Origin: an uncultured Methanosarcinales archaeon
GTDB taxonomy: Archaea; Nanobdellota; Nanobdellia; Woesearchaeales; DSVV01
DNA length: 64,000 bases
Assembly: GCA_964593285.1 (NCBI GenBank)
Contig: CAZQHZ010000001.1
Coordinates: 2,124 to 66,123 of the forward strand
Direction of reading: 5' to 3'
This document shows positions 2,591 through 60,106 of this stretch, one piece after another. The notes beneath the pieces were generated by a model. The model was given only the letters and a program-made list of their open reading frames with translations. It did no database searches and was not told the DNA's origin. Made by a program: the position numbers and the translations under genes. Each line of letters begins with the position of its first letter. Position 1 is the first letter of the stretch.

Positions 2591-4000
2591 ATGGAATTTA
2601 ATGATTATAAAGTTAAAGATTTAAATTTAGCAGAATTTGGACGAAAAGAAATTGAAATTGCAGAAAAAGAAATGCCAGGTTTAATTGCATTAAGAGAAAA
2701 ATATGGTGAAGAAAAACCATTAAAGGGTGCAAAAATTACTGGAAGTTTACATATGACTATTCAAACTGCTGTTTTAATTGAAACATTGGTTTTACTTGGT
2801 GCAGATGTTAGGTGGGCTTCATGTAATATCTTTTCAACACAAGACCATGCTGCAGCAGCAATTGCAAAAGCAAAAATTCCTGTGTTTGCATGGAAAGGTG
2901 AAACTTTAAAAGAATATTGGTGGTGTACTAAAAAAGCACTTACTTTTCCAGATGGCATGGGTCCTGATTTAATTGTAGATGATGGAGGAGATGCAACGCT
3001 TATGATTCATAAAGGTGCTGAAATTGAAAAAAATCCAGAATTGCTAGAAAATGACTATGGTGATGAAGGAGAAGACTTTGTTGAATTGATAAATATTTTA
3101 AAATCAACATATCAAGAAAATAAAAATTTATGGACTAATATTTCAAAAGAAATTAAAGGTGTATCAGAAGAGACAACAACTGGTGTTCATAGATTATATC
3201 AATTATTTGAAGAAAATAAATTATTATTTCCAGCAATTAATGTAAATGATTCTGTTACAAAATCAAAATTTGATAATTTATATGGGTGCAGGGAAAGTTT
3301 ACTTGATGGAATTAAAAGAGCAACAGATGTTATGATTTCAGGAAAAGTTGCTGTTGTTTGTGGTTATGGAGATGTTGGAAAAGGATGTGCTCAAAGCTTA
3401 CGTGGACAGGGTGCACGAGTTATTATCACAGAAATTGATCCAATTTGTGCACTTCAAGCTTTAATGGAAGGCTTTGAAGTAAAAACAATTGAAGATACAT
3501 TAGGTGAAGGAAATATTTATGTAACAGCGACAGGAAATTACCATGTAATTACTAAAGAACATATTGAAAAAATGAAAGATCAAGCAATTGTTTGTAACAT
3601 TGGTCATTTTGATAATGAAATAGAAGTTTCACCACTAAATAAAAGAGAAGATGTTAAAAAAATAAATATTAAAGAAGGTGTTGATAAATACATTTTTCCA
3701 AAAGGCAATGAAATTTTTATTTTAGCTGAAGGTCGATTAGTAAATCTTGGTTGTGCAACAGGTCACCCTAGTTTTGTTATGTCAAATTCTTTTACAAATC
3801 AAGTTTTAGCACAATTAGATTTATGGCAAAACAATCATAAAATAAGTGTTATGATGCTTTCAAAAGAATTAGATGAAGAAGTTGCACGATTACATTTAGA
3901 TAAACTTGGCTGTAAATTAACAACTTTAACAGAAAAACAAGCAGAGTATATTGGTGTTAAAAAAGAAGGCCCATATAAACCAAATCATTATAGGTATTAA
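2591..4000 (+). CDS. ahcY: Adenosylhomocysteinase (S-adenosyl-L-homocysteine hydrolase)
   Basis: 469 aa; N-terminus ...[57 protein letters not shown] and the NAD-binding [10 protein letters not shown] segment are diagnostic for SAHH. Confidence 0.93.
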
Positions 4001-6569: not shown

Positions 6570-7625
<1,056 letters not shown>

Positions 7626-14626: not shown

Positions 14627-14744
14627 GCGTCGGTAGTCTAACGGCTAGGATAGAGGCCTTCCACACGCTAGAATTAAAGATTCGCTGGTTATTTGCCAGG
14701 CGCGAAGAGAGCCTTTGATCCGGGTTCGAATCCCGGCCGACGCA
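14627..14744 (+). tRNA. tRNA-Gly(UCC) with a ~45-nt intron at the canonical 37/38 position
   Basis: Acceptor GCGTCGG/CCGACGC plus discriminator A; D arm GTCT-AACGGCTA-GGAT; anticodon stem GAGGC/GCCTT; loop CTTCCA|intron|A; T arm CCGGG-TTCGAAT-CCCGG. Exons closely resemble archaeal tRNA-Gly(UCC). 118 nt total, no encoded CCA. Confidence 0.8.
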
Positions 14745-17063: not shown

Positions 17064-17774
17064 TTATCCTCTAATTATTATTTCATCAAAATTAGGCCTT
17101 ATTAATTCTTCAATTTCTTCTAATTCTTTTTTAGTGTATATTTTTTCATTCATAAAAGATAAATCTAAAACGCTTCCTTTATTACAAAATTGTTGCATCA
17201 CATACCTTTTTGCACCTTTTAATTCTTTGCTAATAGTTATTAAATCTTCTTTTGTTAATAATTTTGGAATAACTGTTGTTCTAAATTCATAATCAATATT
17301 AGAATTTTTAATTAAAGAAATTGATTTTTTTATTTTTTCAATATCAACTGTTGTAATAGTTATTTTTTCATATGAATTCATTGGTCCTTTGATATCCATT
17401 GCTATATAATCAATTAATTTTTCATCAAGCATATCCCATAAAAGTTTTGGATTACTACCATTTGTATCAAGTTTTATTTTTAGATTTAATTTTTTTATTT
17501 CACGAAAAAAATCAATTAATTCAGGGTATAGTGTTGGTTCACCACCTGTTATAACAACAGCATCAATCCACTTTTTTTTTGAAATTAAATAGTCAATTAT
17601 CTCTTTTTCATCAATTGTTTTAATTTCTTTATATTTTAATACTAAATTAAAATTATGGCAATATCCACATCTAAAATTACAACCTCCAATGAAAATAACA
17701 CAAGATGTGTATGGTGGGTAATCTATTAGTGAAGTCTTTTGTATGCCTTTAATTGGAAGCATTTTAAAATTCAT
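17064..17774 (-). CDS. nrdG: Anaerobic ribonucleoside-triphosphate reductase activating protein (radical SAM)
   Basis: 236 aa; radical-SAM cluster motif CNFRCGYCHN near the N-terminus; directly downstream of nrdD. Confidence 0.85.
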   Translation of the reverse strand: MNFKMLPIKGIQKTSLIDYPPYTSCVIFIGGCNFRCGYCHNFNLVLKYKEIKTIDEKEIIDYLISKKKWIDAVVITGGEPTLYPELIDFFREIKKLNLKIKLDTNGSNPKLLWDMLDEKLIDYIAMDIKGPMNSYEKITITTVDIEKIKKSISLIKNSNIDYEFRTTVIPKLLTKEDLITISKELKGAKRYVMQQFCNKGSVLDLSFMNEKIYTKKELEEIEELIRPNFDEIIIRG

Positions 17775-18039
17775 CTAAATTTTTATTTTTAACAAAATTT
17801 TGAAATTCTTCAATGTCTGTAACTGAAGCTATTTTTTCACCATTTTTTAAAAATACAATTGTTGGAACTCCACTTACTTCATACTGCTTTGCTTTTTCTA
17901 GACCTTCTTTAGTTGTTGCATCTACTTCTTCTCCTTTAGCTAAAAGTTTTGGATTTTCTTTTAGCCATTCATGAATCTCTCCACAATTTGGACACATAGG
18001 TGTCATAAAAAATAAAAATTTATCAAACATTTTTATCAC
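17764..18039 (-). CDS. Small thioredoxin/glutaredoxin-like redoxin (CPNC active site)
   Basis: 91 aa; Cys pair CPNCGE, ...GVPTIVFLKNGEKI... thioredoxin-fold pattern; overlaps the nrdG start by 11 nt, between nrdD and nrdG. Confidence 0.6.
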   Translation of the reverse strand: MIKMFDKFLFFMTPMCPNCGEIHEWLKENPKLLAKGEEVDATTKEGLEKAKQYEVSGVPTIVFLKNGEKIASVTDIEEFQNFVKNKNLDEF

Positions 18040-18112
18040 ATCTCCATTTATTTATTTTATGAATTTGATTAGAACTTTTTATATAAAAAATTATTGAAAA
18101 AAATAAAAAAAA

Positions 18113-20710
18113 TTATTTTTTACTAACATTAGCCAGTAGTTCTTTTTTAAAACAACTTTTTTCAATATTGTTTTCATCAAAAACAAGTCTTTCACTAAAT
18201 TCTTCTTTTTTCCCTTTATTCCAATTTTGAACAGGTCTATAGTAACCAACAATTCTTGAAAAAACTTCTGTTGGTTTATTACATGTTGGACAATCATGCT
18301 TTTCTCCTTTAATATAACCATGTTCATCGCAAATACTAAATGTTGGTGTTATTGAAAAATATGGAAGTCTTGTGTTATATGCAATCTTTTGAATCAATTT
18401 TTTACAAGATTCACCAGAACTTACTTTTTCACCCAAAAATGTATGAAAAATTGTACCGCCAGTATATAAATGTTGTATTTCATCTTGGTGTTCAATTGCT
18501 TCAATTAAGTTATCAGAATGGCCAACTGGAAGCTGAGTTGAATTTGTCAAATATGGTTCATCCTCTCCTGATGTTTTAATTTTTGGATACATCTTTTTAT
18601 CAAGTAAAGCAAATCTATAACTTGTTGATTCTGCAGGTGTTGCTTCTAAATTATATAAATTACTTGTTTCATTTTGAAATTCTAAACACATATCTCTCAT
18701 GAATTGTAGTGTTTCAATTGCTAAATTTTTTCCTTCACTAGTTGAAATATCTTTATCAATCAAATTCATTGCAGCTTCATTCATTCCACAAAGTCCAATG
18801 GTTGAAAAATGATTATTAAAAGTTCCAAGATATCTTTTAGTATATGGCATTAATCCTTTTTCAAGATTTAGATCTATCATTTTTCTTTTTATTTCAAGAG
18901 AATCTTTTGCAAGTAACATATATTGTTTTATTTTATCAAAAAACTCTTCTTTTGATTTTGCTTCAAATGCCAACCTATTAAGATTAATTGTTACAACACC
19001 AATTGATCCAGTACTATCTCCAGGTCCCCACATGCTTCCTGGTCTTTTCATTAAATCAAATTGGTTTAAATTAAGTCTACAGCACATTGCTCTGATAGAT
19101 TTTGGATCTAAATTTGATCCAATATAATTTTGAAAATATGGTGTTCCATACTTTGCTGTAACTTCAAACAATATTTTTGCATTTTCACTATCCCAATCAA
19201 AATTTTTTGTTAAATTATATGTTGGAATTGGAAATGAAAAAATTCTTCCAGTAGCATCTCCTTCAAGCATAACTTCTAAAAATGCTTTATTTATTATGTC
19301 CATTTCTTTTTGTAAATCGCCATATTTATAATCTACACGCTTTCCACCAATAATTGCTTTTTCATTTTTCATATCTTCAGGGACAACCCAATCAAATGTT
19401 AAATTTGAGAATGGATATTGTGAACCCCATCTTGATGGTATATTTAATGAAAATACTAATTGCTGCATACATTGTTTAACTTCTTTATAAGTCATTTTAT
19501 CTTCTCTAACAAATGGTGCAAGCAATGTATCAACACTTGAAAATGCTTGTGCTCCTGCAAATTCCATTTGTAAGCAACCTATGTAATTAACCATTTGATG
19601 AACTATTGTTCCCATATGTTTTGCACCTTTGCAATCAACTTTTCCAGGAACTCCACCAAATCCTTTCAATAATAAATTTTTCAAAGACCATCCAGCACAA
19701 TACCCGATAACACCATTAGTTAAGTCATGTATATGCATATATCCTTCTTTATGTGCTGTAGATATTGCTGGTGTGTATATATAATTGAGTATATAATTTG
19801 AAATTATTTTTCCAGATGTATATAATAATAAACCAGAAAATGAAAATTGTTCATTACTATTTTCATTAACTTTCCATGTTGCTTTATCTAAATATTCTTT
19901 AACTGTTGATTCAATTTCAATCATTGTATTTTTTGTTGCTCTAAGTTTTATTTGTTGTTGCCTATATAAAATATAACTTTTAACAGTTGTATAGTGTCCT
20001 TCTTCTGTTAAAACTTTTTCAACTAAATCTTGAACATTTTCAACTGTTGGAATATTTTTATCATCATATTTTTCATTTACCAATTGAACTACTTTTTGCC
20101 CAAGTTCTGCTGACAATTCTTTATCTTTTCCACCAACAGATTTTGCAGCTTTCCAAATAGCTTCAACTATCTTTTCTCCATCAAAATCAACAATTGAATT
20201 ATCTCTTTTTTTAACCTTATTTACTTTTAATTTTGTTTTAGGTAAAGGTTTGTCTTTTAAATTTTCAATCTCTTTTTGAAATGCTTCAATACTAGAAAAC
20301 CCTTTAAATACTGATGCAAATCTTAAATAGGAAATATGATCTAATTTTTTTAATTCATTAATAATCATCTTACCTAATTTTTTAGTTTCTATTTCATTTT
20401 CATCTAAAGTTCTAGATTTTGCTTCAATTTTTTCAACTAATTCATCAATAATTTTTTCATCAACAGATCTTTTTTCGCAGGCTTTTAAAATTCCAGATTT
20501 TAATTTTTCTCGATTAAACGGTTCTCTTTCACCATTTTTTTTAATAACATTAAGGTTAATAATCTCAATTCTTTCATATGTTGTAAATCGTTTACCGCAT
20601 TTTAAACATTCTCTTCTTCTTCTAGTGCTATCTTCATCAGAAGTGTTTCTTTTATCTATAACTTTTATTTCATTTGTATTACAATATGGGCATTTCATTT
20701 TATATATCAC
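18113..20710 (-). CDS. nrdD: Class III anaerobic ribonucleoside-triphosphate reductase fused to an N-terminal full-length NrdR-like domain (Zn ribbon + ATP cone), followed by a second ATP cone
   Basis: 865 aa, one ORF. Residues 1-150 align along their length with bacterial NrdR (CPYC...RRRRECLKCGKRFTTYER; REPFNREKLKSGILKACEKR; YLRFASVFKGFSSIEAFQKEI). Then a second ATP cone, the NrdD catalytic core, a C-terminal CPTC zinc site and the glycyl-radical motif RIVGYYRPV. Confidence 0.9.
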   Translation of the reverse strand: MIYKMKCPYCNTNEIKVIDKRNTSDEDSTRRRRECLKCGKRFTTYERIEIINLNVIKKNGEREPFNREKLKSGILKACEKRSVDEKIIDELVEKIEAKSRTLDENEIETKKLGKMIINELKKLDHISYLRFASVFKGFSSIEAFQKEIENLKDKPLPKTKLKVNKVKKRDNSIVDFDGEKIVEAIWKAAKSVGGKDKELSAELGQKVVQLVNEKYDDKNIPTVENVQDLVEKVLTEEGHYTTVKSYILYRQQQIKLRATKNTMIEIESTVKEYLDKATWKVNENSNEQFSFSGLLLYTSGKIISNYILNYIYTPAISTAHKEGYMHIHDLTNGVIGYCAGWSLKNLLLKGFGGVPGKVDCKGAKHMGTIVHQMVNYIGCLQMEFAGAQAFSSVDTLLAPFVREDKMTYKEVKQCMQQLVFSLNIPSRWGSQYPFSNLTFDWVVPEDMKNEKAIIGGKRVDYKYGDLQKEMDIINKAFLEVMLEGDATGRIFSFPIPTYNLTKNFDWDSENAKILFEVTAKYGTPYFQNYIGSNLDPKSIRAMCCRLNLNQFDLMKRPGSMWGPGDSTGSIGVVTINLNRLAFEAKSKEEFFDKIKQYMLLAKDSLEIKRKMIDLNLEKGLMPYTKRYLGTFNNHFSTIGLCGMNEAAMNLIDKDISTSEGKNLAIETLQFMRDMCLEFQNETSNLYNLEATPAESTSYRFALLDKKMYPKIKTSGEDEPYLTNSTQLPVGHSDNLIEAIEHQDEIQHLYTGGTIFHTFLGEKVSSGESCKKLIQKIAYNTRLPYFSITPTFSICDEHGYIKGEKHDCPTCNKPTEVFSRIVGYYRPVQNWNKGKKEEFSERLVFDENNIEKSCFKKELLANVSKK

Positions 20711-26926: not shown

Positions 26927-27022
26927 TTATATTTTGTTATAGTTTAGTTTATCTTTTGTTAATATCAAAAAAATTATATCTTTTTCTTCTTCAATTATTT
27001 TTAATTTTCCTTCATTAAATAT
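26927..27022 (-). pseudogene. Remnant of a methyltransferase-gene 3' end (about 31 codons homologous to the C-terminus of the 28181..28699 methyltransferase)
   Basis: Minus-strand translation IFNEGKLKIIEEEKDIIFLILTKDKLNYNKI* parallels the MTase C-terminus IFNERNFKIIEEEKDIIVLILTKNKINLKLIF*. A stop occurs immediately upstream in that frame, so only the tail is present; the HEPN-like gene's last codons overlap it in another frame. Confidence 0.5.
26954..27019. repeat. Direct repeat copy A (66 bp, ~90% identical to 28203..28268)
   Basis: ttttgttaatatcaaaaaaattatatctttttcttcttcaattatttttaattttccttcattaaa compared with copy B ttttgtcaatattaaaacaattatgtctttttcttcttcaattattttaaaatttctttcattaaa. Confidence 0.75.
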
Positions 27023-27492
27023 CTCTTTATAAAATTATTTCTTATATTATTTATCTCTTCTATTCTAATTAAATCTATTTTTTCAAGAATTTTTATATTA
27101 AATTTTTCAGCAATATCAATTCCTATTTTTACATCTTCTTTAGTAGATTTAAAATCAATATAATATTGTTTATCTAATCTTTCTTTTTTTGATTCTTTAA
27201 TTTCTTTATTCTCAAAATCAAATAATTCTTTTAATAATATTATTGAACCAGTATGATTTTGACTTTTAATACCACATTTAAATAATAAAGCTAAAAGAGA
27301 ATAATACATCGAATAATAAGTTAAAGCAGTAGCATCATCAAAATTACCAATTTTATAAAGTGTTTTTGATGATGTTAAAGATTTTGATGATTTATCTAAA
27401 TATGATTCACAAATTTCAAGGCTTGGTTCAACTAATTTTATTTTATTTTCTATTATTAATTTTTTAATGAATTGATTCATAAAATTTTTCAA
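27001..27492 (-). CDS. HEPN-like domain protein, putative toxin partner of the upstream nucleotidyltransferase
   Basis: 163 aa, all-helical; overlaps the MNT gene by 29 nt in the standard MNT-then-HEPN order; the canonical Rx4-6H motif is not clear (closest is KSQNHTGS), so the HEPN assignment rests mainly on context. Confidence 0.45.
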   Translation of the reverse strand: MKNFMNQFIKKLIIENKIKLVEPSLEICESYLDKSSKSLTSSKTLYKIGNFDDATALTYYSMYYSLLALLFKCGIKSQNHTGSIILLKELFDFENKEIKESKKERLDKQYYIDFKSTKEDVKIGIDIAEKFNIKILEKIDLIRIEEINNIRNNFIKRYLMKEN

Positions 27493-28202
27493 CTCCTTTA
27501 ATTATTACATGATTTTTTATAATTTCTTTAATTAATAAATTATTTTTATCAAATTCACCTGTTTTTATACTTAATTTTGTGTCTAATAAACTTAATTTTT
27601 TTTTATATTTGCTTTCATTAATATATAAATCGATGTCGCTATCATTTGTATTAGTATTTTTTGTATATGAACCAAAAATTATTGCAATTTCTAAATTTAA
27701 TTTTTTGATTTCATTAATAATTTTTCTTAATCTTGGATTATTTTTTATTAAATTTATTAATTTATAATGTTCCATCATCATTAATTTTTCTTTAGCTTCA
27801 ATTGAATCTTTTATAAAATATACTTTATTTTTACCTTCTTTTTTGAAATCAACTATATTTTGGTTTTCTAATTCTTTTATTTTTCGAGATATGGTCATAT
27901 GATTAATATTTAATATGTTAGATAATGATCTAATATGGTTATTTCTTTTAAATAATTCTTGTAATATATTGTAACTTATTTGTTCCATATGTAACAAATA
28001 TTGTCCAATAATATATAAAGTTTTCTATTTTTTTAAAAATATAAACAAAACAATTTAATAAATTAAACTAATGAAATGTAGAATAATTTTCGATTATTTT
28101 AAAAATATTTATTTATCAATTCAAAAAAAGCATATTTTTTCAATTTTTTTGAAAAGTATTTTTATTATAATGATATGTATTTAAAATATTAATTTAAGGT
28201 TT
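27020..28202 (-). mobile_element. Putative inserted MNT/HEPN-like cassette bounded by 66-bp direct repeats (no integrase or transposase seen)
   Basis: Two-gene TA-like module flanked by imperfect direct repeats derived from a gene 3' end, plus a displaced gene-tail remnant on the far side; this pattern resembles site-specific integration at gene 3' ends. No recombinase is encoded, so this is an inferred insertion, not a demonstrated mobile element. Confidence 0.3.
27464..27997 (-). CDS. Minimal nucleotidyltransferase (MNT, pol-beta superfamily) with N-terminal winged-helix DNA-binding domain, putative antitoxin
   Basis: 177 aa; N-terminal wHTH (...ILNINHMTISRKIKELENQNIV...) followed by the NTase signature IIFGSYTKNTNTNDSDIDLYI (hG[GS]x9-13DhD). 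Confidence 0.7.
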   Translation of the reverse strand: MLHMEQISYNILQELFKRNNHIRSLSNILNINHMTISRKIKELENQNIVDFKKEGKNKVYFIKDSIEAKEKLMMMEHYKLINLIKNNPRLRKIINEIKKLNLEIAIIFGSYTKNTNTNDSDIDLYINESKYKKKLSLLDTKLSIKTGEFDKNNLLIKEIIKNHVIIKGVEKFYESIH

Positions 28203-42058: not shown

Positions 42059-42183
42059 TGCGGGGAGTAGGACTCGAACCCACGTAAGCACTAAGCTAAC
42101 AGGTGTCTTTATTTCATTGTAATTTTACTCATCACACCTAAAATACCTAAGCCTGTCCCGTTTGACCACTCCGGCATCCCCGC
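42059..42183 (-). tRNA. tRNA-Leu(UAG), type II (long variable arm), with a 41-nt intron at position 37/38
   Basis: Reverse complement: acceptor GCGGGGA/TCCCCGC plus A; D arm CCG-GAGTGGTCAAA-CGG; anticodon stem ACAGG/CCTGT; loop CTTAGG|intron|A; 15-nt variable arm with AGC/GCT stem; T arm GTGGG-TTCGAGT-CCTAC. Intron TATTTTAGGTGTGATGAGTAAAATTACAATGAAATAAAGAC. Confidence 0.8.
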
Positions 42184-44355: not shown

Positions 44356-44387
<32 letters not shown>

Positions 44388-48084: not shown

Positions 48085-49130
48085 TGAAATTTTTATTTGC
48101 ATATGAATTTGGAAAATCTTTTATTCCAGATAAAATTAGACCAAATTTGCGAAAATATTTATTTAAAGCAGGTATTGTAAATGAACCTTATTCTTTTTTT
48201 GGAATTTTATTTTATTTTTCTTTAATTTTTTCAATTTCTTTTTATTTTCTATATATTAAATTGTTATTAGATCAGTTTGTTGGACTTGAAAATATTACTA
48301 ATATTTTTTTAAATTTTTTAATAACTTTTAGTTCGATTGTTTTACTAAATTTTTTAATTATAGGTTTTTTTATAGTGATTGTTTATTTTTTTATTGATTT
48401 AATAATTTATAATAGAACTAAAAAATTAGAAGAAATATTACCTTATTTTTTTGATAATTTATCAGCTAATTTAAAATCTGGTATGTCTTTTGATAATGCA
48501 TTATTTATGTCAATAAAACCTGAATTTGGTATTTTAGCAGATGAAATTGCAATAACTGCAAAAAAAGTAATGACTGGAAATGATATTGAATTAGCACTTG
48601 AAGAGTTTTCTAAAAAATATGACTCACCAATGCTTAAGCGTTCAATGGAATTAATTATCAATCAATTAAAAGAAGGAGGTGCAGTTTCTGATATTATTGA
48701 TAAGATTGCTTTTAATTTAAAAAATACAATGGAATTAAAACAAGAAATTAGAACTTCTGTATATAGTTATGTATTATTTATATCAATAATTGTTATTTTA
48801 ATTTCTCCAGTTTTATTTGCATTATCGCAAAATTTATTTGAAATTATTAAAAGCGTTGTTAATGTTTTAGCATTTTCAATGGGTTCAACTGATGCAGTAG
48901 GTTTTAGTGTAAGTGAAATTACAATCACTAAAGAAGTTTTTAATTGGTTTTCATTTATTGCATTAAGTATTATTGCAATTTTTTCTTCAATGATTGTTTC
49001 AATTATAGAAAAAGGTGATATAAAATCAGGAGTAAAATATATTCCTATGTATTTTATCGGTTCGCACGTTGTTTATTTAATTGCATCCAATGTTTTAGGG
49101 ATTGTTTTTGGTGGATTTATTATGAGTTAA
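48084..49130 (+). CDS. Pilus platform membrane protein, second half (single T2SSF domain; FlaJ/TadC-like)
   Basis: 348 aa; same TM-T2SSF-TM layout (...NDIELALEEFSKKYDSPMLKRSMELIINQLKEGGAVSDII...); start overlaps the previous stop (ATGA). Confidence 0.65.
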   Translation: MKFLFAYEFGKSFIPDKIRPNLRKYLFKAGIVNEPYSFFGILFYFSLIFSISFYFLYIKLLLDQFVGLENITNIFLNFLITFSSIVLLNFLIIGFFIVIVYFFIDLIIYNRTKKLEEILPYFFDNLSANLKSGMSFDNALFMSIKPEFGILADEIAITAKKVMTGNDIELALEEFSKKYDSPMLKRSMELIINQLKEGGAVSDIIDKIAFNLKNTMELKQEIRTSVYSYVLFISIIVILISPVLFALSQNLFEIIKSVVNVLAFSMGSTDAVGFSVSEITITKEVFNWFSFIALSIIAIFSSMIVSIIEKGDIKSGVKYIPMYFIGSHVVYLIASNVLGIVFGGFIMS

Positions 49131-50300
49131 TTTATTGTTAATATTTTTTATTGAAATCAAAGGAAAATCTACTATGCTTTTTAATAACCGTGAAAAATGT
49201 TCTGTTATGTAGTTTAAATGTCTAAAAATAGGTAAAATTTTTGGATTAAAAAGATTTGGTATTTTTTCAATTAATTCTACATGTTCAATTCCAATTTTAC
49301 CATAATATAATTTATTTAAATTATTTCCATTTTTTATGAATTTTTTTATTAAAATATATCCTTTAAGATAATTTATATCCTTAGTACAAGCACCAGCTTT
49401 AGTTGTATCACCAAGGCCGCGTTTAGCTCTTAATGTTAATCTAAAAGCCGTATCTTTATTAAAATATTTTCTTAAATTTTCATAAGTTTCTCTAAATGAA
49501 TATTTTAATGCAAAATCTATTGCAATAACTCTTCCAGCATATATTTTTAAAATATAATCATTCAAACAATCATTAATTTCTTCATTATAAACAGCAAGTC
49601 CTTCTTCTGTTTTTAAATATCCTAAAAGTCCTCTTTTAAAAAATAAATAGGGTTGCATTTTTCCGTTTTCAAATCTTGCAACATGTGTTCCTATTTCATG
49701 TACTATTAATCGCTTTAGAAAATTCTCAGAAAATTTCATATCTTTTTTAATATAAATTGTCATTTTATTTGTATTAACAGCAGCTTTTGAAACCATTTCT
49801 TTTTCCTTTACATTCCAAGGAAATCCATATTTTAAAAAAGCAAATTTAAATTTATTAACAACTTGTTTTGATGTATATATTTCTGTTTCTTTTTTAAATT
49901 TAATATGCATAAATTTTTTTGCTTCATTTAATAATTTTTTATTTGGCGAACCATAAATTTTTTTTGAATATTTAGTAAATTTAACATTATCTTTTCTATA
50001 TTGTAGTAGATATGTTTTATCAATGTAATTTTGTTTAATTTCTTCTAATATTTTTCCAATTATAGTATTATTTGTTTTAATTTCTTTTAATTCATTTCGA
50101 ATTTCTTTTAAATTTTCTTTATATTCACTATATTTAAAAATTGGATTGTAATTAATATTTTCAAAAAATTTTTTTTTTTCAGTTTCAACATTTATTGGAT
50201 TAATTGCATAAAATGATAATTTTTTACTTATATTATCTAATTTGAGATCAATTTTATGTAATTTATTAAAAAATAAATCTTTAAATTTAAAATTTACCAT
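49095..50300 (-). CDS. DUF1704 / QEGLA-motif family putative zinc metallopeptidase
   Basis: 401 aa; HExxH-like LIVHEIGTHVARFENG and an EEGLAVYNEE (EGLA) motif; 3' end overlaps the platform gene's 3' end by 36 nt (convergent). Confidence 0.55.
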   Translation of the reverse strand: MVNFKFKDLFFNKLHKIDLKLDNISKKLSFYAINPINVETEKKKFFENINYNPIFKYSEYKENLKEIRNELKEIKTNNTIIGKILEEIKQNYIDKTYLLQYRKDNVKFTKYSKKIYGSPNKKLLNEAKKFMHIKFKKETEIYTSKQVVNKFKFAFLKYGFPWNVKEKEMVSKAAVNTNKMTIYIKKDMKFSENFLKRLIVHEIGTHVARFENGKMQPYLFFKRGLLGYLKTEEGLAVYNEEINDCLNDYILKIYAGRVIAIDFALKYSFRETYENLRKYFNKDTAFRLTLRAKRGLGDTTKAGACTKDINYLKGYILIKKFIKNGNNLNKLYYGKIGIEHVELIEKIPNLFNPKILPIFRHLNYITEHFSRLLKSIVDFPLISIKNINNKLTHNKSTKNNP

Positions 50301-50396
50301 TTTTGTAGTTTATTATAGTATTTAGTATATTTAAATATTTGGTTTTTAAATTTTAAATAAAAAACTTTTTATATTAATAATAGTTTCTAATTAATA

Positions 50397-50825
50397 ATGG
50401 CTATTATTAATAACTTATTAAAATCAAATTTAAATAAATGTAAATGTAAGCGTTTAACTTTTCAAAAACAAAAAGTATATGAATTATTAAAATCTACAAA
50501 AACGCATCCACGAGCAGAAGATATTTTTAATGCATTAAAAAAAATTATTCCAACAATTACTCTTGCAACTGTTTATCGAAATTTACATACATTAGCAAAC
50601 GAAGGTAAAATTTTAAAATTAGAAATAAATAAAGAATATAGATTTGATGCAGATTTATCAAATCATTTACATTTTGTCTGCAATAATTGCAATTGTATTA
50701 TTGATTTACATAATAATGAAATAAATAGTTTTATTAAAAAAAAATTATCAAATTTTAATTTAGAAATAAATTGTATAAATATTATAGTTAAAGGTATTTG
50801 TAATAAATGTCAAAAAGAGAATTGA
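50397..50825 (+). CDS. Fur-family metalloregulator (PerR-like)
   Basis: 142 aa; ...THPRAEDIFNALKKIIPTITLATVYRNLHTLANEGKI... (Fur DNA-binding helix) and C-terminal metal site HLHFVCNNCNCII...C..C. Confidence 0.8.
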   Translation: MAIINNLLKSNLNKCKCKRLTFQKQKVYELLKSTKTHPRAEDIFNALKKIIPTITLATVYRNLHTLANEGKILKLEINKEYRFDADLSNHLHFVCNNCNCIIDLHNNEINSFIKKKLSNFNLEINCINIIVKGICNKCQKEN

Positions 50826-50971
50826 AAATGTTTTTTTATAACCATAATCAAAATTATTATAGTACTAATACATACAATTTATATAAGGAAAATTATGCTC
50901 AAAATAAATGTAGCCATTGTATAAGTTGTGGTTATTGTAAATGATTTTAGAAAAAATAAAAGGTGTTTTAA

Positions 50972-51469
50972 ATGAATGAAAAAGAAGATATTTTTGTTAA
51001 AGCTTTAGAATTTGAAAAAAAAGGTTACAAGTTATATAAAGAAGCAGGAGATAGTTCTTTTAATCCGTTTGTAAAAAAAATATTTTTATTTTTAGCAAAT
51101 GAAGAATTAAACCACATAATGGCTATTGAAAAATATATTAAAGAAAATGATTTAAGTATTAATTTTGGTTTTAATAAAAATGAAGTAAAAGATTTTTTTA
51201 ATATGACTATTGATGAATTTAAAGAAGGAATTGAATTTACTGAAAATGAAATAAAAGTTTATGAAAAAGCATTAGATTTAGAAAAATCAGGATTTGATTT
51301 TTATAAAACTAAAGCAAATGAAACAAATAATAATGAAATTAAAGATTTTTTATTATTTTTAGTAGAGCAAGAAAAAAGTCATTATTTAATGCTTGAAAAA
51401 TCCTTAAAATTCATAAAAAACCCAGTAAACTTTTTTGCATTACAAGAGGACTGGAGTTTTGAGGGTTAA
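50972..51469 (+). CDS. Ferritin-like diiron protein (rubrerythrin family, no rubredoxin domain)
   Basis: 165 aa; two ExxH half-sites (ANEELNHIM, LVEQEKSHYLM) in a four-helix-bundle pattern. Confidence 0.55.
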   Translation: MNEKEDIFVKALEFEKKGYKLYKEAGDSSFNPFVKKIFLFLANEELNHIMAIEKYIKENDLSINFGFNKNEVKDFFNMTIDEFKEGIEFTENEIKVYEKALDLEKSGFDFYKTKANETNNNEIKDFLLFLVEQEKSHYLMLEKSLKFIKNPVNFFALQEDWSFEG

Positions 51470-51491
51470 TTTAAAACAACGAGGTGTAAAA

Positions 51492-52037
51492 ATGGAAAAA
51501 ACAATAGAAAATTTAAAAACTGCATTTGCAGGAGAAAGCCAAGCTAGAAACAAATATGATTATTTTGCTAAAGTTGCAAAAAAAGAAGGATATTTGTATA
51601 TTGCAAAAATTTTTGAAGAAACTGCAATAAATGAAATGCAACATGCAAAAGATGAGTTTAAATTACTTGGTGTCTTGGGAGATACTAAAAAGAATTTAAA
51701 AGAAGCAATTAATGGAGAAAATTATGAACACAAAGACATGTATCCAAAGTTTCAAAAAGAAGCAGAAGAAGAAGGAAATGAAAAGGCAGCAAAATTATTT
51801 AAACAAATTGCAAAAGTAGAAGAGGAACATGAAGCACGATTTAAAAATTTATTAAAGTTAGTTGAAGAAGGAAAGGTCTTTAAAAGAGATAGTGAAATTA
51901 GATGGAAATGTTCTAAATGTGGTTATATTTACAAATCAACAGAGCCACCAGAAGAGTGTCCTTCGTGCAAACATCCAAAAGAATATTATGAACCTGAATG
52001 TATGTGTTTTGAGGATGATTGTAGTTGCTGTAAATAA
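51492..52037 (+). CDS. rbr: Rubrerythrin with a Cys-rich C-terminal extension
   Basis: Starts MEKTIENLKTAFAGESQARNKYDYFAKVAKKEGY... (ferritin-like diiron domain), then a rubredoxin-like WKCSKCGY...ECPSCKHP, then an extra tail ...YYEPECMCFEDDCSCCK. The listed ORF begins at 51435; the Met at 51492, preceded by GAGGTG, is the likelier start. Confidence 0.8.
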   Translation: MEKTIENLKTAFAGESQARNKYDYFAKVAKKEGYLYIAKIFEETAINEMQHAKDEFKLLGVLGDTKKNLKEAINGENYEHKDMYPKFQKEAEEEGNEKAAKLFKQIAKVEEEHEARFKNLLKLVEEGKVFKRDSEIRWKCSKCGYIYKSTEPPEECPSCKHPKEYYEPECMCFEDDCSCCK

Positions 52038-52082
52038 ATTTTATTTTTTTAATTTTTTTATAATAAATAAAGGTTTTTAAAA

Positions 52083-52598
52083 ATGGTAAAATTATTTAGA
52101 TGTGTTATTTGTGGGGATTCATATATTGGGGATAATGCGCCAACAAACTGTCCTTTCTGCGGGGTTTTGGGTGAAAATATTAAAGAATATAAAGATGCAA
52201 ATGTAAATTATGATGTTACATTAAATGAAGTTGATTTAGAAAATGTAAAAAAAGCATTAGATGTTGAAATTAGTAATACTGAATTTTATTTTTCTGCATC
52301 AAAAAAAATGGAAAATAGTGAAGCAAAAAATTTATTTAAAGCACTTGGCAAAATCGAAGCAGAACATGCATCCATTTTTAAGAAAATTTTAAAACTAGAT
52401 TCAATTGAAATTAAGTCAATTGATGTATCTAATGATTATATTGAAATTTTAAATGAATCTAATAGACGAGAACAGCGAGCAATTAATTTTTATAAAGATG
52501 CAGCAAAAGTTTGTGAAAATGAAAGAGTAAAAGAAATCTTTTTAGCATTAATTTATGTTGAAGATGACCATTTGGATTTGTCAAAACAAAGATTATAG
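52083..52598 (+). CDS. Reverse rubrerythrin (N-terminal rubredoxin-like domain + C-terminal ferritin-like domain)
   Basis: 171 aa; N-terminal FRCVICGDSY...NCPFCGV then a diiron helical domain (...KIEAEHASIF..., ...YVEDDHLD...). Confidence 0.75.
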   Translation: MVKLFRCVICGDSYIGDNAPTNCPFCGVLGENIKEYKDANVNYDVTLNEVDLENVKKALDVEISNTEFYFSASKKMENSEAKNLFKALGKIEAEHASIFKKILKLDSIEIKSIDVSNDYIEILNESNRREQRAINFYKDAAKVCENERVKEIFLALIYVEDDHLDLSKQRL

Positions 52599-52608
52599 GT
52601 GAATTAAA

Positions 52609-52992
52609 ATGAATGAAGAAAATGATATTTTTAAGTGCAATATTTGTGGAAATGTTGTTGAATTATTTATTGCAAAACAAGGAAGCTTAGTTTGCTGTGG
52701 TAAGGATATGGTAAAATTAACTGCAAATACAGTTGATGCTGCAGTTGAAAAACATGTTCCAGTAGTTGAGATTAATGATAATATTGTAACTGTAACTGTT
52801 GGAGAAGTAGAGCATCCAATGAATGATGAGCATTATATCAGATTAATAGAATTATTGCAAAATGGTGCTATCATAAAATCAAGATATCTAAAGCCAAATG
52901 AAAAACCTGTTGCAAAATTTGTAGTTGATGATACTTCTAACTTAAAAGCTAGAGAATATTGCAATTTACATGGTTTATGGGCAAATAAATAA
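52609..52992 (+). CDS. dfx: Desulfoferrodoxin (2Fe superoxide reductase)
   Basis: 127 aa; desulforedoxin-like N-domain CNICGNVV...LVCCG; SOR domain EKHVPVVE...VEHPMNDEHYI. Confidence 0.85.
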   Translation: MNEENDIFKCNICGNVVELFIAKQGSLVCCGKDMVKLTANTVDAAVEKHVPVVEINDNIVTVTVGEVEHPMNDEHYIRLIELLQNGAIIKSRYLKPNEKPVAKFVVDDTSNLKAREYCNLHGLWANK

Positions 52993-53018
52993 ATTTTTAT
53001 TTTTTATTTTTAATTAAA

Positions 53019-53657
53019 ATGGATTTAATAACTAAAATTAAAAATTTAAAAAAAACACAAATTAAATTAAGAGTAGATAAAAAACTAAAAGAATTTTCAA
53101 GTTTTAAAAATAAAAATTCTAATGAATGGTTTTCTGAATTATGTTTTTGTATTTTAACTGCAAATTCAAAAGCAAAAACTGCAATTAATATTCAAAATGA
53201 TTTAAAAGCGATTGGTTTTTGTAATTTTTCAGAAAATAAAATTAAAAAGTGCATTATAAAAAATAAACACAGGTTTCATAATAATAAAACTAATTATATT
53301 ATATGTGCACGTGAATTTATTAATATAAAGCAAATAATAAATGAAATTATTAAAAAAGATGATGAAATAGTTTTGAGAGATTTTATTGTAAAAAATATTA
53401 AAGGTCTTGGATATAAGGAAGCTTCACATTTTCTTCGAAATGTTGGTTTTTTTAATTTTGCAATTTTAGATAGGCACATTATAAATTTAATGATTGAAAA
53501 TAAAATAATTAAAGAAAAGCCAAGTAATTTATCTAATAAAAAAACATATTTTGAATTAGAAAAACAAATTTTAAACATTGCAAATAAATTAAAAATGAGT
53601 GCTGCAGAACTTGATTTATATATGTGGTATCTAAAAACTAATGAAGTCTTAAAATAA
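53019..53657 (+). CDS. ogg: N-glycosylase/DNA lyase (archaeal Ogg2-type 8-oxoguanine DNA glycosylase)
   Basis: 212 aa; HhH-GPD-type pattern ...ELCFCILTANSKAKTAINIQNDL... and a conserved Lys/Asp region (...IKGLGYKEASHFLRNVGFFNFAILDRHI...). Confidence 0.7.
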   Translation: MDLITKIKNLKKTQIKLRVDKKLKEFSSFKNKNSNEWFSELCFCILTANSKAKTAINIQNDLKAIGFCNFSENKIKKCIIKNKHRFHNNKTNYIICAREFINIKQIINEIIKKDDEIVLRDFIVKNIKGLGYKEASHFLRNVGFFNFAILDRHIINLMIENKIIKEKPSNLSNKKTYFELEKQILNIANKLKMSAAELDLYMWYLKTNEVLK

Positions 53658-53662
53658 AAAAA

Positions 53663-53932
53663 TTAATTTTTTGAAAAAAATAACATACAATGGCATCTAC
53701 CATCTTTTAATATTTCATCTTTATGATAAATACACGGGCAAATTATTTTTTTATCTTCTTCTTTATTTCCTGTTCTTTTTCTACATGGACAATATATTTC
53801 ACCATATAATTCTTTATTTTTAAAAAGACCAAAAATAATTATTTCTCGTACCTTCTCATTTGGATTTAAAACAAAATTATTTTTAGTAGCATAATTTTCT
53901 AAATATTCTTTTAATTCTTCTTTAGTTTTCAT
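53663..53932 (-). CDS. Ferredoxin-thioredoxin reductase catalytic-subunit-like protein
   Basis: 89 aa; Cys pattern CPCR...CPCIYH...GRCHCMLF matches the FTR-B signature (CPC..x..CPC..H....G.C.C.LF). Confidence 0.65.
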   Translation of the reverse strand: MKTKEELKEYLENYATKNNFVLNPNEKVREIIIFGLFKNKELYGEIYCPCRKRTGNKEEDKKIICPCIYHKDEILKDGRCHCMLFFSKN

Positions 53933-53949
53933 TTTTAAAAATAAAAATA

Positions 53950-54279
53950 TTAAATTTTATTTAAAATTGAATTAATTGCTTCTATAAGCTCTTCTTTTTC
54001 AAGGTATCCAACAATTCTATCAACTTCAGCCCCATTATTAAAAACAATTAAACATGGAATTCCATCAATTGAATATTTACTTGAAATATTTTTAGCATTA
54101 TCTGTATTGATTGTTAAAAATTTCATTTTATCAGTAAATTCATCACTAACTTCTTTAAAAATAGGCTTTAACATAACACAAGGACCACACCAATTAGCAA
54201 AAAAATCAACAATTACAGGCATATTTGATTCTAGTGCTTCCTTTTCAAATTCATTTTCACTAATTTCTTTTACTACCAT
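53950..54279 (-). CDS. trx: Thioredoxin
   Basis: 109 aa; active site WCGPC (FANWCGPCVMLKP), ...GIPCLIVFNNGAEV... Confidence 0.85.
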   Translation of the reverse strand: MVVKEISENEFEKEALESNMPVIVDFFANWCGPCVMLKPIFKEVSDEFTDKMKFLTINTDNAKNISSKYSIDGIPCLIVFNNGAEVDRIVGYLEKEELIEAINSILNKI

Positions 54280-54552
54280 TTTTTTATTACCCCCTTATTA
54301 TCTATTTATATAATAAAAAAATAAAATAGTTTATAAATTTATTTATTTCAAAAATTATAGGTTGAATTAAATAAAAAGAAAAAATATTTTAATTTCTAAA
54401 AAAAATTATGTGAATAGTTTACAATGCATAAATTGTTTTAGTTGTATAAGTAAATGTTCAAAAAATAATGCACTTAAATATAAATTAATTAATTTTAAAC
54501 ATTTTATAAAAAAATAGTTAATTATTTAAATTAAATAATATCAATAAAAAAA

Positions 54553-59731: not shown

Positions 59732-60106
59732 TTATTCTTTTTTAAGAAAGCTTTGTGCTAAGTCAATTACATATTTACCTTCTTCTAATTTGTAAACAAG
59801 AGGTTTATCTTTTTTAAATAAAGAAACTAAATCAACTTCAAATTTACCTGGTTTTAAAATTCTAATGCTTTCAAAATCTAAAATAACTGCATTATCATTT
59901 TCTTCTTTTACACCAACTATATCCAAAACATCTTTTTCGATTTGTTTTTTATCTTTAGTGGTTAAATTTTCAACAGCTTCTTTTGCTTCTTCAATATTTT
60001 TTTTTTTAACAAAAAAGAATAATTTAGCACCACAGCTACATCCACTCAAAATTGCTTTTGATCCATCATCATATACAGTTCCACATCTAACACATTGGTG
60101 AGGCAT
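59732..60106 (-). CDS. Zn-ribbon domain protein (conserved hypothetical)
   Basis: 124 aa; N-terminal CVRCG...GCSCG zinc ribbon, remainder acidic/helical. Confidence 0.35.
   Translation of the reverse strand: MPHQCVRCGTVYDDGSKAILSGCSCGAKLFFFVKKKNIEEAKEAVENLTTKDKKQIEKDVLDIVGVKEENDNAVILDFESIRILKPGKFEVDLVSLFKKDKPLVYKLEEGKYVIDLAQSFLKKE

Follow-up and report, generated by a model that had tools for sequence, protein, structure and literature searches.

In Desulfovibrio vulgaris, the gene for rubrerythrin (Rbr) reportedly belongs to a fur-like/rbr/rdl operon, and in Campylobacter jejuni, desulforubrerythrin is a rubrerythrin with a third metal centre, of Cys4 type, besides the di-iron and rubredoxin sites, located in a 36-residue N-terminal desulforedoxin domain. 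The regulation of such genes has been described in Clostridioides difficile, where the rbr1-perR-rbo-CD630_08280 operon is autoregulated by PerR (PMC8546684), and DPANN genomes have already been reported to carry rubrerythrin and superoxide reductase (PMC8561730). Here we describe a gene cluster located at positions 50397–54279 of a 64-kb stretch of archaeal DNA (64,000 nucleotides of contig CAZQHZ010000001.1, hereafter the window), which is probably an operon for defence against oxidative stress in a DPANN archaeon, under the control of the Fur-family, PerR-like repressor that it encodes. Based on the comparative sequence evidence set out below, we would give this reading a probability of about 0.8. 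As in the C. difficile operon, a rubrerythrin, a Fur-family PerR-type repressor and a desulfoferrodoxin (Dfx) are encoded together, with a box at the promoter and, as predicted here, self-control of the regulator.

Gene content, predicted operator and conservation of the cluster

The genes were identified through their Pfam domains, the NCBIfam curated equivalog cut-offs, relatives of solved structure in the PDB, and the alignment of catalytic and metal-binding residues. A sequence-only reading of the window had proposed seven consecutive genes forming an anaerobe-type module for the detoxification of oxygen and reactive oxygen species (ROS). All the genes that it named were found where it had placed them, each with the support of Pfam, and four of the proteins (rubrerythrin, desulfoferrodoxin, the 8-oxoguanine glycosylase Ogg and thioredoxin) score above the NCBIfam cut-offs and keep their metal-binding or catalytic residues. 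The gene set stands and the count does not, the cluster holding eight recognizable genes plus a small open reading frame (ORF) at 50807/50828–50944; as a whole, that interpretation is supported as essentially right. Its claim that catalase and superoxide dismutase are missing holds for the 64-kb window, which is as far as it extends.

The cluster opens with the Fur-family, PerR-like regulator, of 142 amino acids (aa) (50397–50825, + strand; PF01475, E=3e-24). After the small ORF comes a ferritin-like di-iron-carboxylate protein of 165 aa (50972–51469, +; PF02915 alone, at residues 7–143, E=1.6e-14), with ExxH motifs at residues 45 and 134, no cysteine and no rubredoxin domain. These are the features of COG1633-type proteins, and a weak similarity to two of them, 2oh3 and 1vjx/TM1526, was detected.

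The rubrerythrin (51492–52037, +; 181 aa) combines PF02915 with a C-terminal PF21349 domain (45.6 bits) and scores 213.8 bits against the NCBIfam rubrerythrin equivalog NF045767 (cut-off 200). Its layout is that of a di-iron four-helix bundle, followed by a rubredoxin-like Fe(Cys)4 domain and then by a tail. Residues 3–167 align end to end with D. vulgaris rubrerythrin (1ryt), E15, E48/H51, E76, E79 and E110/H113 corresponding to E20, E53/H56, E94, E97 and E128/H131 of that protein. The di-iron ligands and Cys140/143/156/159 are invariant, or nearly so, in 39 aligned homologues, and the AlphaFold2 model has a mean pLDDT of 86.8. The start had earlier been placed at TTG 51435; the true start is the ATG at 51492, preceded by gaggtg, and the resulting 181-aa product is identical to the NCBI protein P0001, titled 'MAG: rubrerythrin [Nanoarchaeota archaeon]'.

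In the protein encoded next (52083–52598, +; 171 aa) the order of domains is reversed, as had been proposed from the sequence: PF21349, at residues 5–28, precedes PF02915, which begins at residue 53, with Cys7/10/23/26 and ExxH motifs at residues 92 and 160. No relative of solved structure was found in the search made for one, the NCBIfam matches are weak (23 bits against the rubrerythrin equivalog model), and BLASTP against the rubrerythrin and the ferritin-like protein of the window gives 27–32 bits over short stretches. Because of this divergence the protein is named rubredoxin-first rubrerythrin-like here, without placing it in the clostridial reverse rubrerythrin (revRbr) family.

Desulfoferrodoxin, a two-iron superoxide reductase of 127 aa (52609–52992, +; PF06397 and PF01880), reaches 151.6 bits against TIGR00320 (cut-off 146.9) and 121 bits against the Desulfoarculus baarsii protein 2ji1. 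Cys10/13/29/30 of the N-terminal desulforedoxin-type Cys4 centre (PF06397) are kept, and so is, relative to 2ji1, the His4Cys catalytic centre (EKHVP, HPM..EH and C118-x2-H121). The last gene on this strand encodes an Ogg2-type 8-oxoguanine DNA glycosylase/AP lyase of 212 aa (53019–53657, +; PF22175, E=1e-57), with 234.8 bits against NF002305 (cut-off 183) and 195 bits against the Methanocaldococcus jannaschii enzyme (3fhf/3knt), of which it retains GYKEASHFLRNVG and DRH, with the catalytic Lys and Asp of the HhH-GPD fold.

Upstream of the regulator lies a TATA-box-like element, TTTTATATT (50367–50375, +), the likely promoter of the regulator and operon, which aligns with AAACATTTATATA in 11 related promoters. 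Since this element is located only about 25 nt before the regulator ATG at 50397, the operon mRNA is probably leaderless. The predicted operator (50373–50410, +; 38 bp) consists of two tandem Fur-box-like 7-1-7 inverted repeats with the consensus ATTAATAATgATTACTAATTAATAATaATTATCATTAA; the likely start of transcription falls within it, and the second repeat extends into the first codons of the regulator. Archaeal repressors usually block the recruitment of RNA polymerase by binding just downstream of the TATA box, so that autoregulation would be the natural reading of this arrangement.

A search of the window for the canonical 7-1-7 pattern, allowing one mismatch, returned 21 matches, mostly repeat-derived, and hence a comparative position weight matrix (PWM), built without the window sequence, was used. 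In the related loci the conserved stretch 5′ of the Fur genes consists of AAACA-TTTATATA, followed by about 38 bp that contain two 7-1-7 repeats 17 bp apart. Scanned over both strands of the 64 kb, the PWM scores 30.1 bits at 50373–50410 and 10.0 bits at the next unrelated site; runs of TTA/ATT triplet repeats at 6799–6828 and 44356–44386 were false positives of the operator search. The related loci carry the operator only upstream of Fur genes, in one region per locus, with a mean column identity of 76% across promoters from genomes of 22–52% G+C; as it is equally clear at both ends of this range (the window itself has a G+C content of about 22%), base composition is not its cause. The finding of this conserved operator at the Fur-family gene alone strengthens the earlier proposal that this regulator heads the cluster, a proposal in which neither the operator nor the small ORF had figured. 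A scan for bacterial promoters and terminators, which gave 38 sites against 40.8 expected, is uninformative for an archaeon. As far as literature searches show, the regulator and this operator would be the first such pair predicted to be shared across DPANN lineages, and they would open a way to study gene regulation in organisms that do not grow in culture by themselves.

From Fur to Dfx all genes lie on the same strand with gaps of 2–45 nt, and Shine-Dalgarno (SD)-like GGTG sites precede the ferritin-like, rubrerythrin, rubredoxin-first and Dfx genes. In the mechanism that we propose, a metal-loaded repressor dimer would bind the two tandem repeats past the TATA box and stop transcription, and peroxide or the loss of metal would free the repressor from its operator. 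The promoter would then drive transcription of the regulator, the small Cys-rich peptide, the ferritin-like protein, the rubrerythrin, the rubredoxin-first protein and Dfx. By homology, desulfoferrodoxin would reduce superoxide to H2O2 and rubrerythrin would reduce H2O2 to water, and Ogg2, encoded on the operon transcript or expressed from its own promoter, would remove 8-oxoguanine. The tail of the rubrerythrin would most likely contribute an extra metal site with an accessory structural or electron-entry role.

The conservation of the cluster was followed by scanning one genome per GTDB species with the rubrerythrin protein, which gave 80 loci; the set of related loci used here (designated by L numbers) has n=82. 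A closer relative, L081, comes from a JGI metagenome and has a rubrerythrin 89% identical to that of the window, and the gene order of the cluster is matched on contig JBMCSS010000016.1 of assembly GCA_048624335.1 (L082). The titles of the scan loci refer to DPANN groups (Woese-, Nano-, Pace-, Micr-, Aenigmat- and Parvarchaeota, Iainarchaeum), to 'archaeon' or, once, to Methanobacteriota. Many of the third-party annotation (TPA) assemblies among them are titled 'uncultured Methanosarcinales', an unverified label that we suspect to be wrong.

The ORFs within 4 kb of the rubrerythrin gene were clustered, and the cluster representatives were labelled by Pfam. Dfx lies by the rubrerythrin in 46 of the 82 loci and the rubredoxin-first protein in 13, in both cases always on the same strand. 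An 81-aa glutaredoxin-like protein recurs in 21 loci, Ogg in 19–22, Fur in 15, endonuclease III in 8, ZIP transporters and genes resembling the catalytic subunit of ferredoxin:thioredoxin reductase (FTR) in 7 each, ferritin in 6 and the ferritin-like protein in 5. Such repeated same-strand association with rubrerythrin across the 82 loci means that the clustering of these genes is not a matter of chance. Furthermore, since Ogg and endonuclease III, both base-excision repair genes, recur in these loci, the placing of DNA repair beside detoxification enzymes, to which the sequence-only reading had drawn attention, is not peculiar to the window.

Several points weigh against the reading of an autoregulated, PerR-controlled operon. 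What is known of the cluster, and of all the DPANN proteins considered here, comes from sequence. The regulator falls below the PerR equivalog cut-offs (98 bits against 180–200). The operator half-sites, TAATAAT/ATTATCA, are intermediate between the consensus Fur and PerR boxes of Bacillus subtilis, and the right half of each repeat is degenerate in the window. A second operator, looked for with the PWM upstream of the FTR-like and thioredoxin genes, was not found. There may be several transcripts, given the T-rich tracts after the rubrerythrin and Dfx genes and the lack of an SD site upstream of Ogg; the co-transcription of Ogg is uncertain because of the T-rich tract and the missing ribosome-binding site before it, and this gene may have its own promoter. 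Finally, AlphaFold2 gives the rubrerythrin tail moderate confidence and no fold (pLDDT of about 66–74, modelled as coil), and its truncation in 15 of the 82 lineages indicates that it is dispensable for rubrerythrin as such.

Candidate electron-supply genes and the nature of the regulator

Convergent to the operon, on the opposite strand, lie the genes of a single-domain FTR-catalytic-subunit-like protein of 89 aa (53663–53932, −; FeThRed_B PF02943, E=3e-25, 88.9 bits, cut-off 22) and of a thioredoxin of 109 aa (53950–54279, −; PF00085, E=1e-27), the latter with 111 bits against TIGR01068 (cut-off 96.8) and the active site WCGPC (Cys31/34). The motifs CPC, CPC and CHC of the FTR-like protein (Cys48/50, Cys65/67, Cys80/82 and His81) comprise all the residues needed for a [4Fe-4S] cluster and a redox-active disulfide, and its best solved relatives are 7pwe and the Methanosarcina acetivorans FTR-like enzyme 4tpu. 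Neither an FTR-A variable subunit nor a fused rubredoxin was found among the called neighbours with Pfam hits. The 273-bp gap after the thioredoxin gene contains a 35-aa ORF with a GTG start (54410–54517, +) and a ferredoxin-type CxxCxxCxxxC motif; considered as the ferredoxin partner of the FTR-like protein, it was rejected, since it matches, and looks like a remnant of, the C-terminal end of a Fer4_5 protein preserved at its full 229 aa in L081 (11698–12387).

By its composition, the pair would be a ferredoxin-driven disulfide-reducing system associated with the cluster, which may feed electrons to rubrerythrin or Dfx, or may equally serve general thiol repair or ribonucleotide reductase (RNR). 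A competing explanation, to which we would grant a real possibility though somewhat less than an even chance, is that the pair is a mere neighbour of the operon, dedicated to general disulfide reduction or to the class III RNR at 17–21 kb. Indeed, it lies on the opposite strand without an operator, and the adjacency of the thioredoxin is limited to the window and L081, which share the convergent arrangement. Moreover, the window encodes, at 17064–20710 (−), the class III anaerobic RNR NrdD, with an ATP-cone, and its radical-SAM activase NrdG, with a small thioredoxin-like protein (17764–18039) within the same region, and this system would be another possible client. Methanosarcina FTR-like enzymes are reported to use ferredoxin to reduce thioredoxins and, in Methanosarcina barkeri, to supply class III RNR (PMC6262447). 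On the other side, FTR-like genes, often paired or fused with rubredoxin-like ones, are found inside the same-strand Rbr/Dfx cluster in L004, L044, L059 and L081, and this recurrence argues for a link to the stress response. The presence of a class III RNR fits the anaerobic lifestyle that had been deduced from the detoxification genes.

The genes for electron supply that are attached to the cluster differ, in turn, between lineages. In one type, a glutaredoxin-like protein and a thioredoxin reductase (TrxR)-like flavoprotein are encoded directly upstream of Dfx. In L001 (8073–9380), a TrxR-like pyridine-nucleotide-disulfide oxidoreductase and a complete Dfx form a single 435-aa ORF, a fusion that could be an assembly error; in no fewer than six other loci they are encoded by separate, neighbouring genes. 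A second type involves FNR-like reductases, one of them fused to a rubredoxin-like domain (L035, 3329–4231), and a third a rubredoxin-like protein with an FTR-like protein that has CWC instead of CHC, adjacent in L044 (8409–8818) and L081 (6574–6992) and fused in L004 (9661–10083). The last type is the combination of a CHC FTR-like protein and thioredoxin, seen in the window and L081.

Concerning the regulator, its best solved relatives are PerR proteins (B. subtilis 2fe3 with 67.8 bits and Streptococcus pyogenes PerR with 55.7, against 50 for the best Fur), and two PerR models rank first among ten Fur-family models of NCBIfam (98 bits, against 60 for Fur). In the alignment with 2fe3, His37, Asp85, His91, His93 and Asp104 (B. 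subtilis numbering) are all kept, as are both CxxC pairs of the structural Zn(Cys)4 site (Cys95/98 and Cys135/138). The position of PerR Asp104 is said to be Glu in Fur and to tune the sensitivity to peroxide. The operators of B. subtilis Fur and PerR are reportedly both 7-1-7 boxes. Compared with the PerR-type operator TTATAATnATTATAA, the 7-1-7 architecture is conserved here and the discriminating bases are mixed, A on the left and C on the right, in such a way that neither the Fur nor the PerR box is cleanly matched. A peculiarity of the regulator is an N-terminal extension of about 17 residues with a CxC pair (KCKCK in the window, 50397–50450; SCNCI in L081, 4830–4890), which the Fur genes of the other loci lack and of which the operator itself encodes a part.

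That the regulator could instead be an iron-sensing Fur, and the cluster an iron-homeostasis regulon in which the level of the iron-rich rubrerythrin, Dfx and ferritin-like protein is set by the iron supply, appears unlikely. In its favour, the operator halves match the B. subtilis Fur 7-1-7 box TGATAATnATTATCA exactly in L021 and L003 and with one mismatch in L060 and L059; the related clusters repeatedly contain genes for ferritin, for ferritin-like proteins and for ZIP metal transporters; and, as mentioned, the regulator does not reach the PerR cut-offs. Against this, PDB and NCBIfam comparisons favour PerR over Fur by about 18–38 bits, the equivalent of Asp104 is Asp, and the genes under control are ROS-detoxifying enzymes, as in the PerR operon of C. 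difficile.

The rubrerythrin tail and the small cysteine-rich peptide

The alignment of the rubrerythrin with the D. vulgaris protein stops at residue 167, and 14 residues follow (168–181; 51993–52034, +), with the sequence PECMCFEDDCSCCK and five Cys. Within them, the conserved motif is Cys170-x-Cys172-x4-Cys177-x2-Cys180 (CxCx4CxxC). The tail is present in the 120 best database homologues (120/120; 73–100% identical); in the 39 aligned homologues Pro168, Cys170, Cys172 and Cys177 never vary, and 90% or more of the sequences have Cys180. Over the 82 loci, the full motif was found in 63, variants in 4 and truncated forms in 15. It is absent from solved rubrerythrin structures and from all 150 representatives of more distant rubrerythrin clusters (full-length, up to about 61% identity), which end in ...YFE plus about six residues closing with an aromatic, where the tailed subfamily ends in YYEPECMCFxxxCxxC. 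The sequence-only reading had not recognised this Cys cluster as standard, and these comparisons bear it out; nor is the tail a read-through of a missed stop, being in frame, closed by a TAA (52035–52037) and conserved within the clade. A literature search on Cys-rich rubrerythrin tails retrieved nothing relevant. The tailed rubrerythrins form a subfamily that has so far been met only in genomes labelled as DPANN, with an apparently undescribed tail.

The 15 truncated tails end at assorted stop codons, beyond which L029, L032 and L064 still carry remnants, and in 7 of the 15 Cys170 or Cys172 has been replaced as well, against none of the 63 intact ones. Such loss of the four Cys as a unit points to a single accessory metal site rather than to independent residues, and, judging from this pattern, the tail most likely adds a single metal site beside the rubredoxin domain, holding Zn, Fe or possibly a small Fe-S cluster. 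A Cys4-tailed rubrerythrin could reveal a third metal centre or a new route of electron entry. Selenocysteine in the tail was also considered and rejected, given that all three stop codons (TAA, TAG and TGA) close the truncations, at positions that vary, with no general signal for its insertion. Only in L032 (about 3300–3335) does an in-frame TGA fall exactly at the position of Cys177, and the codons after it read Gly-Cys-Cys-stop. This TGA may have arisen by a recent nonsense mutation; that it specifies selenocysteine is less likely.

Instead of binding metal, the tail might act as a mobile dithiol/disulfide relay between a thioredoxin-fold donor (thioredoxin with the FTR-like protein here, the glutaredoxin-like protein with the TrxR-like flavoprotein in other lineages) and the rubredoxin centre; the enzyme would then be a thioredoxin-linked peroxidase, working in genomes that have no dedicated rubredoxin reductase. 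We find this rather improbable. In its favour, thiol-disulfide genes are the commonest accessories of the cluster (glutaredoxin-like in 21 of 82 loci, usually followed by TrxR-like, and FTR-like in 7), no free rubredoxin or rubredoxin reductase occurs in the cluster of the window, and electron-shuttling Cys-rich C-terminal tails are known in class II RNR (PMC5704485). On the contrary, the state of the tail, intact or truncated, shows no association with any class of neighbouring genes (all p ≥0.28), so that no link to a particular electron-donor gene was found; the loss of the four Cys together suits a single metal site better than a dithiol pair; and thiol repair co-regulated with ROS enzymes explains the synteny without any direct coupling. 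Nor do we know of a rubrerythrin in which a dithiol, a two-electron donor, passes electrons to a one-electron Fe(Cys)4 centre. Finally, a neutral, decaying appendage or a read-through artefact, as the assorted truncating stops in 15 of 82 lineages and the remnants beyond them might suggest, is very improbable for an in-frame tail with a normal TAA that is shared by 120 of 120 close homologues from independent assemblies and keeps its four Cys and Pro168 while the intervening residues vary.

The second Cys-rich element is the small ORF located between the Fur and ferritin-like genes (50828–50944, +), which encodes 38 aa from the ATG after the Fur stop codon, or 45 aa from 50807. Its N-terminus is rich in Tyr, Asn and Ser, and its C-terminus is KCSHCISCGYCK, that is, CxxCxxCxxC. 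The counterpart in L081 (5274–5438) has 54 aa and ends in KCGICTNCGYCK, the Cys codons being identical and the codons between them different. ORFs of the same build (35–54 aa, a start rich in Tyr, Ser and Asn, a C-terminal CxxCxxC and a fourth Cys) lie by the rubrerythrin gene, on the same strand, in six further species, and altogether about 11 independent loci have a copy of this peptide family beside Rbr/Dfx, in every case on the same strand; they include, besides the window and L081, L001 (6700–6834), L017 (159–266), L028 (6557–6673), L039 (5889–5999), L044 (5847–5987), L080 (1232–1342), L087 (8246–8281), L100 (688–810) and L101 (4307–4342). GGAGG- or GGTG-type Shine-Dalgarno-like sites precede most of them. 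Small ORFs that match the pattern number 8 of 388 near rubrerythrin against 0 of 3022 elsewhere (Fisher p=2.6e-8), a count from which the window's own copy should be discounted, the pattern having been defined after seeing it. In a blind metagenome scan for DNA encoding CxxCxxCGYCK-stop, 33 stretches were recovered, three of them with a proper small ORF, and all three ORFs lie just upstream of glutaredoxin-Dfx-Rbr-endonuclease III clusters whose rubrerythrin has no tail. It is this evidence, together with the conservation, that makes of the peptide a real gene tied to the cluster and independent of the tail.

No match to the small ORF was found in Pfam or NCBIfam, and thus it does not belong to a known family there. 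A search of protein databases with the alignment recovered only two copies, which the loci had already supplied, since gene callers seldom report ORFs of this kind: that of the window is unannotated in the NCBI assembly (L082), and that of L081 is called 'hypothetical protein'. The possibility of a precursor of a ribosomally synthesized and post-translationally modified peptide was discarded, as there is no maturase nearby, the radical-SAM genes of the window being NrdG and an unrelated one at 62 kb. A second kind of Cys-rich peptide, of 38 aa (ECFTFSGKTxCQVCGCxDxKCECTHEYI), is encoded directly after rubrerythrin in L005 (6569–6685) and L007 (6572–6688), preceded by a strong ribosome-binding site.

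As a guess of low confidence, the small peptide would hold a metal-thiolate or small Fe-S centre. A bolder proposal, which we regard as rather doubtful, is that the Cys4 tail and the free 35–54-aa peptide are undescribed additions of DPANN archaea to the classical Rbr/Dfx defence, functional redox or metal centres that replace the missing rubredoxin/rubredoxin-reductase chain; within it, the C-terminal CxxCxxC and fourth Cys of the peptide would resemble the spacing of a minimal [4Fe-4S] 'ferredoxin maquette'. If so, electrons for the reduction of peroxide and superoxide in these reduced genomes would come from donors of ferredoxin or thioredoxin type by way of both Cys modules. Whatever its role, a family of small Cys-rich peptides tied to Rbr/Dfx clusters is usually missed by gene callers.

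Genomic setting and comparison with described systems

The genes that flank the cluster are unrelated to redox functions. Upstream are type IV pilus/archaellum-like assembly genes and a MATCAP/DUF1704 peptidase (49095–50300, −; PF08014, E=4e-52); the latter is divergent from the regulator gene, with its start 96 bp from the Fur start codon and no operator of its own. Downstream are a DedA/VTT membrane protein, a PRC-barrel protein and an asparaginyl-tRNA synthetase. Elsewhere in the window, a homologue of the origin-associated protein OapC (59732–60106, −; PF09845, E=2e-23) indicates that a replication origin may be near, and adjacent HEPN and nucleotidyltransferase genes (27001–27997, −; Pfam labels taken from the matching contig L085) likely form a toxin-antitoxin module. 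Two tRNA genes, of 118 nt (14627–14744, +) and 125 nt (42059–42183, −), were detected by Rfam and not by ARAGORN in bacterial mode; their lengths suggest introns, in line with an archaeal host. That host would be an oxygen-stressed anaerobic DPANN archaeon with a standard Rbr/Dfx toolkit.

Unlike the C. difficile operon, the one described here would be read from an archaeal TATA-box promoter, probably as a leaderless transcript, with the operator downstream of the TATA box and the regulator gene in first position. It also has, in addition, a ferritin-like protein, a rubredoxin-first rubrerythrin, Ogg, the small Cys-rich peptide and the Cys4 tail of its rubrerythrin, and it has no rubredoxin-fold flavoprotein. 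The inverted repeats resemble the 15-bp Fur and PerR boxes of B. subtilis (xxATAATnATTATxx), with several loci matching the Fur box exactly, and differ from them in their tandem arrangement, two boxes at a distance of 17 bp, and in their position behind an archaeal TATA box.

The rubrerythrin shares both domains and all ligands with the canonical one of D. vulgaris (1ryt/1b71), which ends a few residues past the rubredoxin domain, with FELLGINW. With respect to desulforubrerythrin, whose additional Fe(Cys)4 domain is a precedent for a third centre in a rubrerythrin, the candidate extra centre here is an 11-residue C-terminal motif, with a different spacing. In the class II RNR NrdJd, a C-terminal array of Cys binds Zn and mediates electron delivery (PMC5704485), which offers a model for what such a tail may do; this enzyme is unrelated, its domain has at least about 30 residues and six Cys with CxxC pairs, and no sequence similarity to the tail is claimed.

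The FTR-like protein, encoded beside a thioredoxin, shares its Pfam family and three Cys pairs with Methanosarcina 4tpu and with the plant and cyanobacterial FTR. Compared with 4tpu, it has 89 aa and lacks the rubredoxin domain fused there, and no variable subunit is encoded nearby; its third motif is CHC, as in plants, against CYC in 4tpu and 7pwe, and the CWC type of the related loci is paired or fused with rubredoxin in the order opposite to that of 4tpu. Altogether, the cluster belongs to a kind of system that is already known, to which the Cys4 tail, the small peptide family, the conserved operator and the varied electron-supply modules, as far as they can be read from the sequences, would be new additions.

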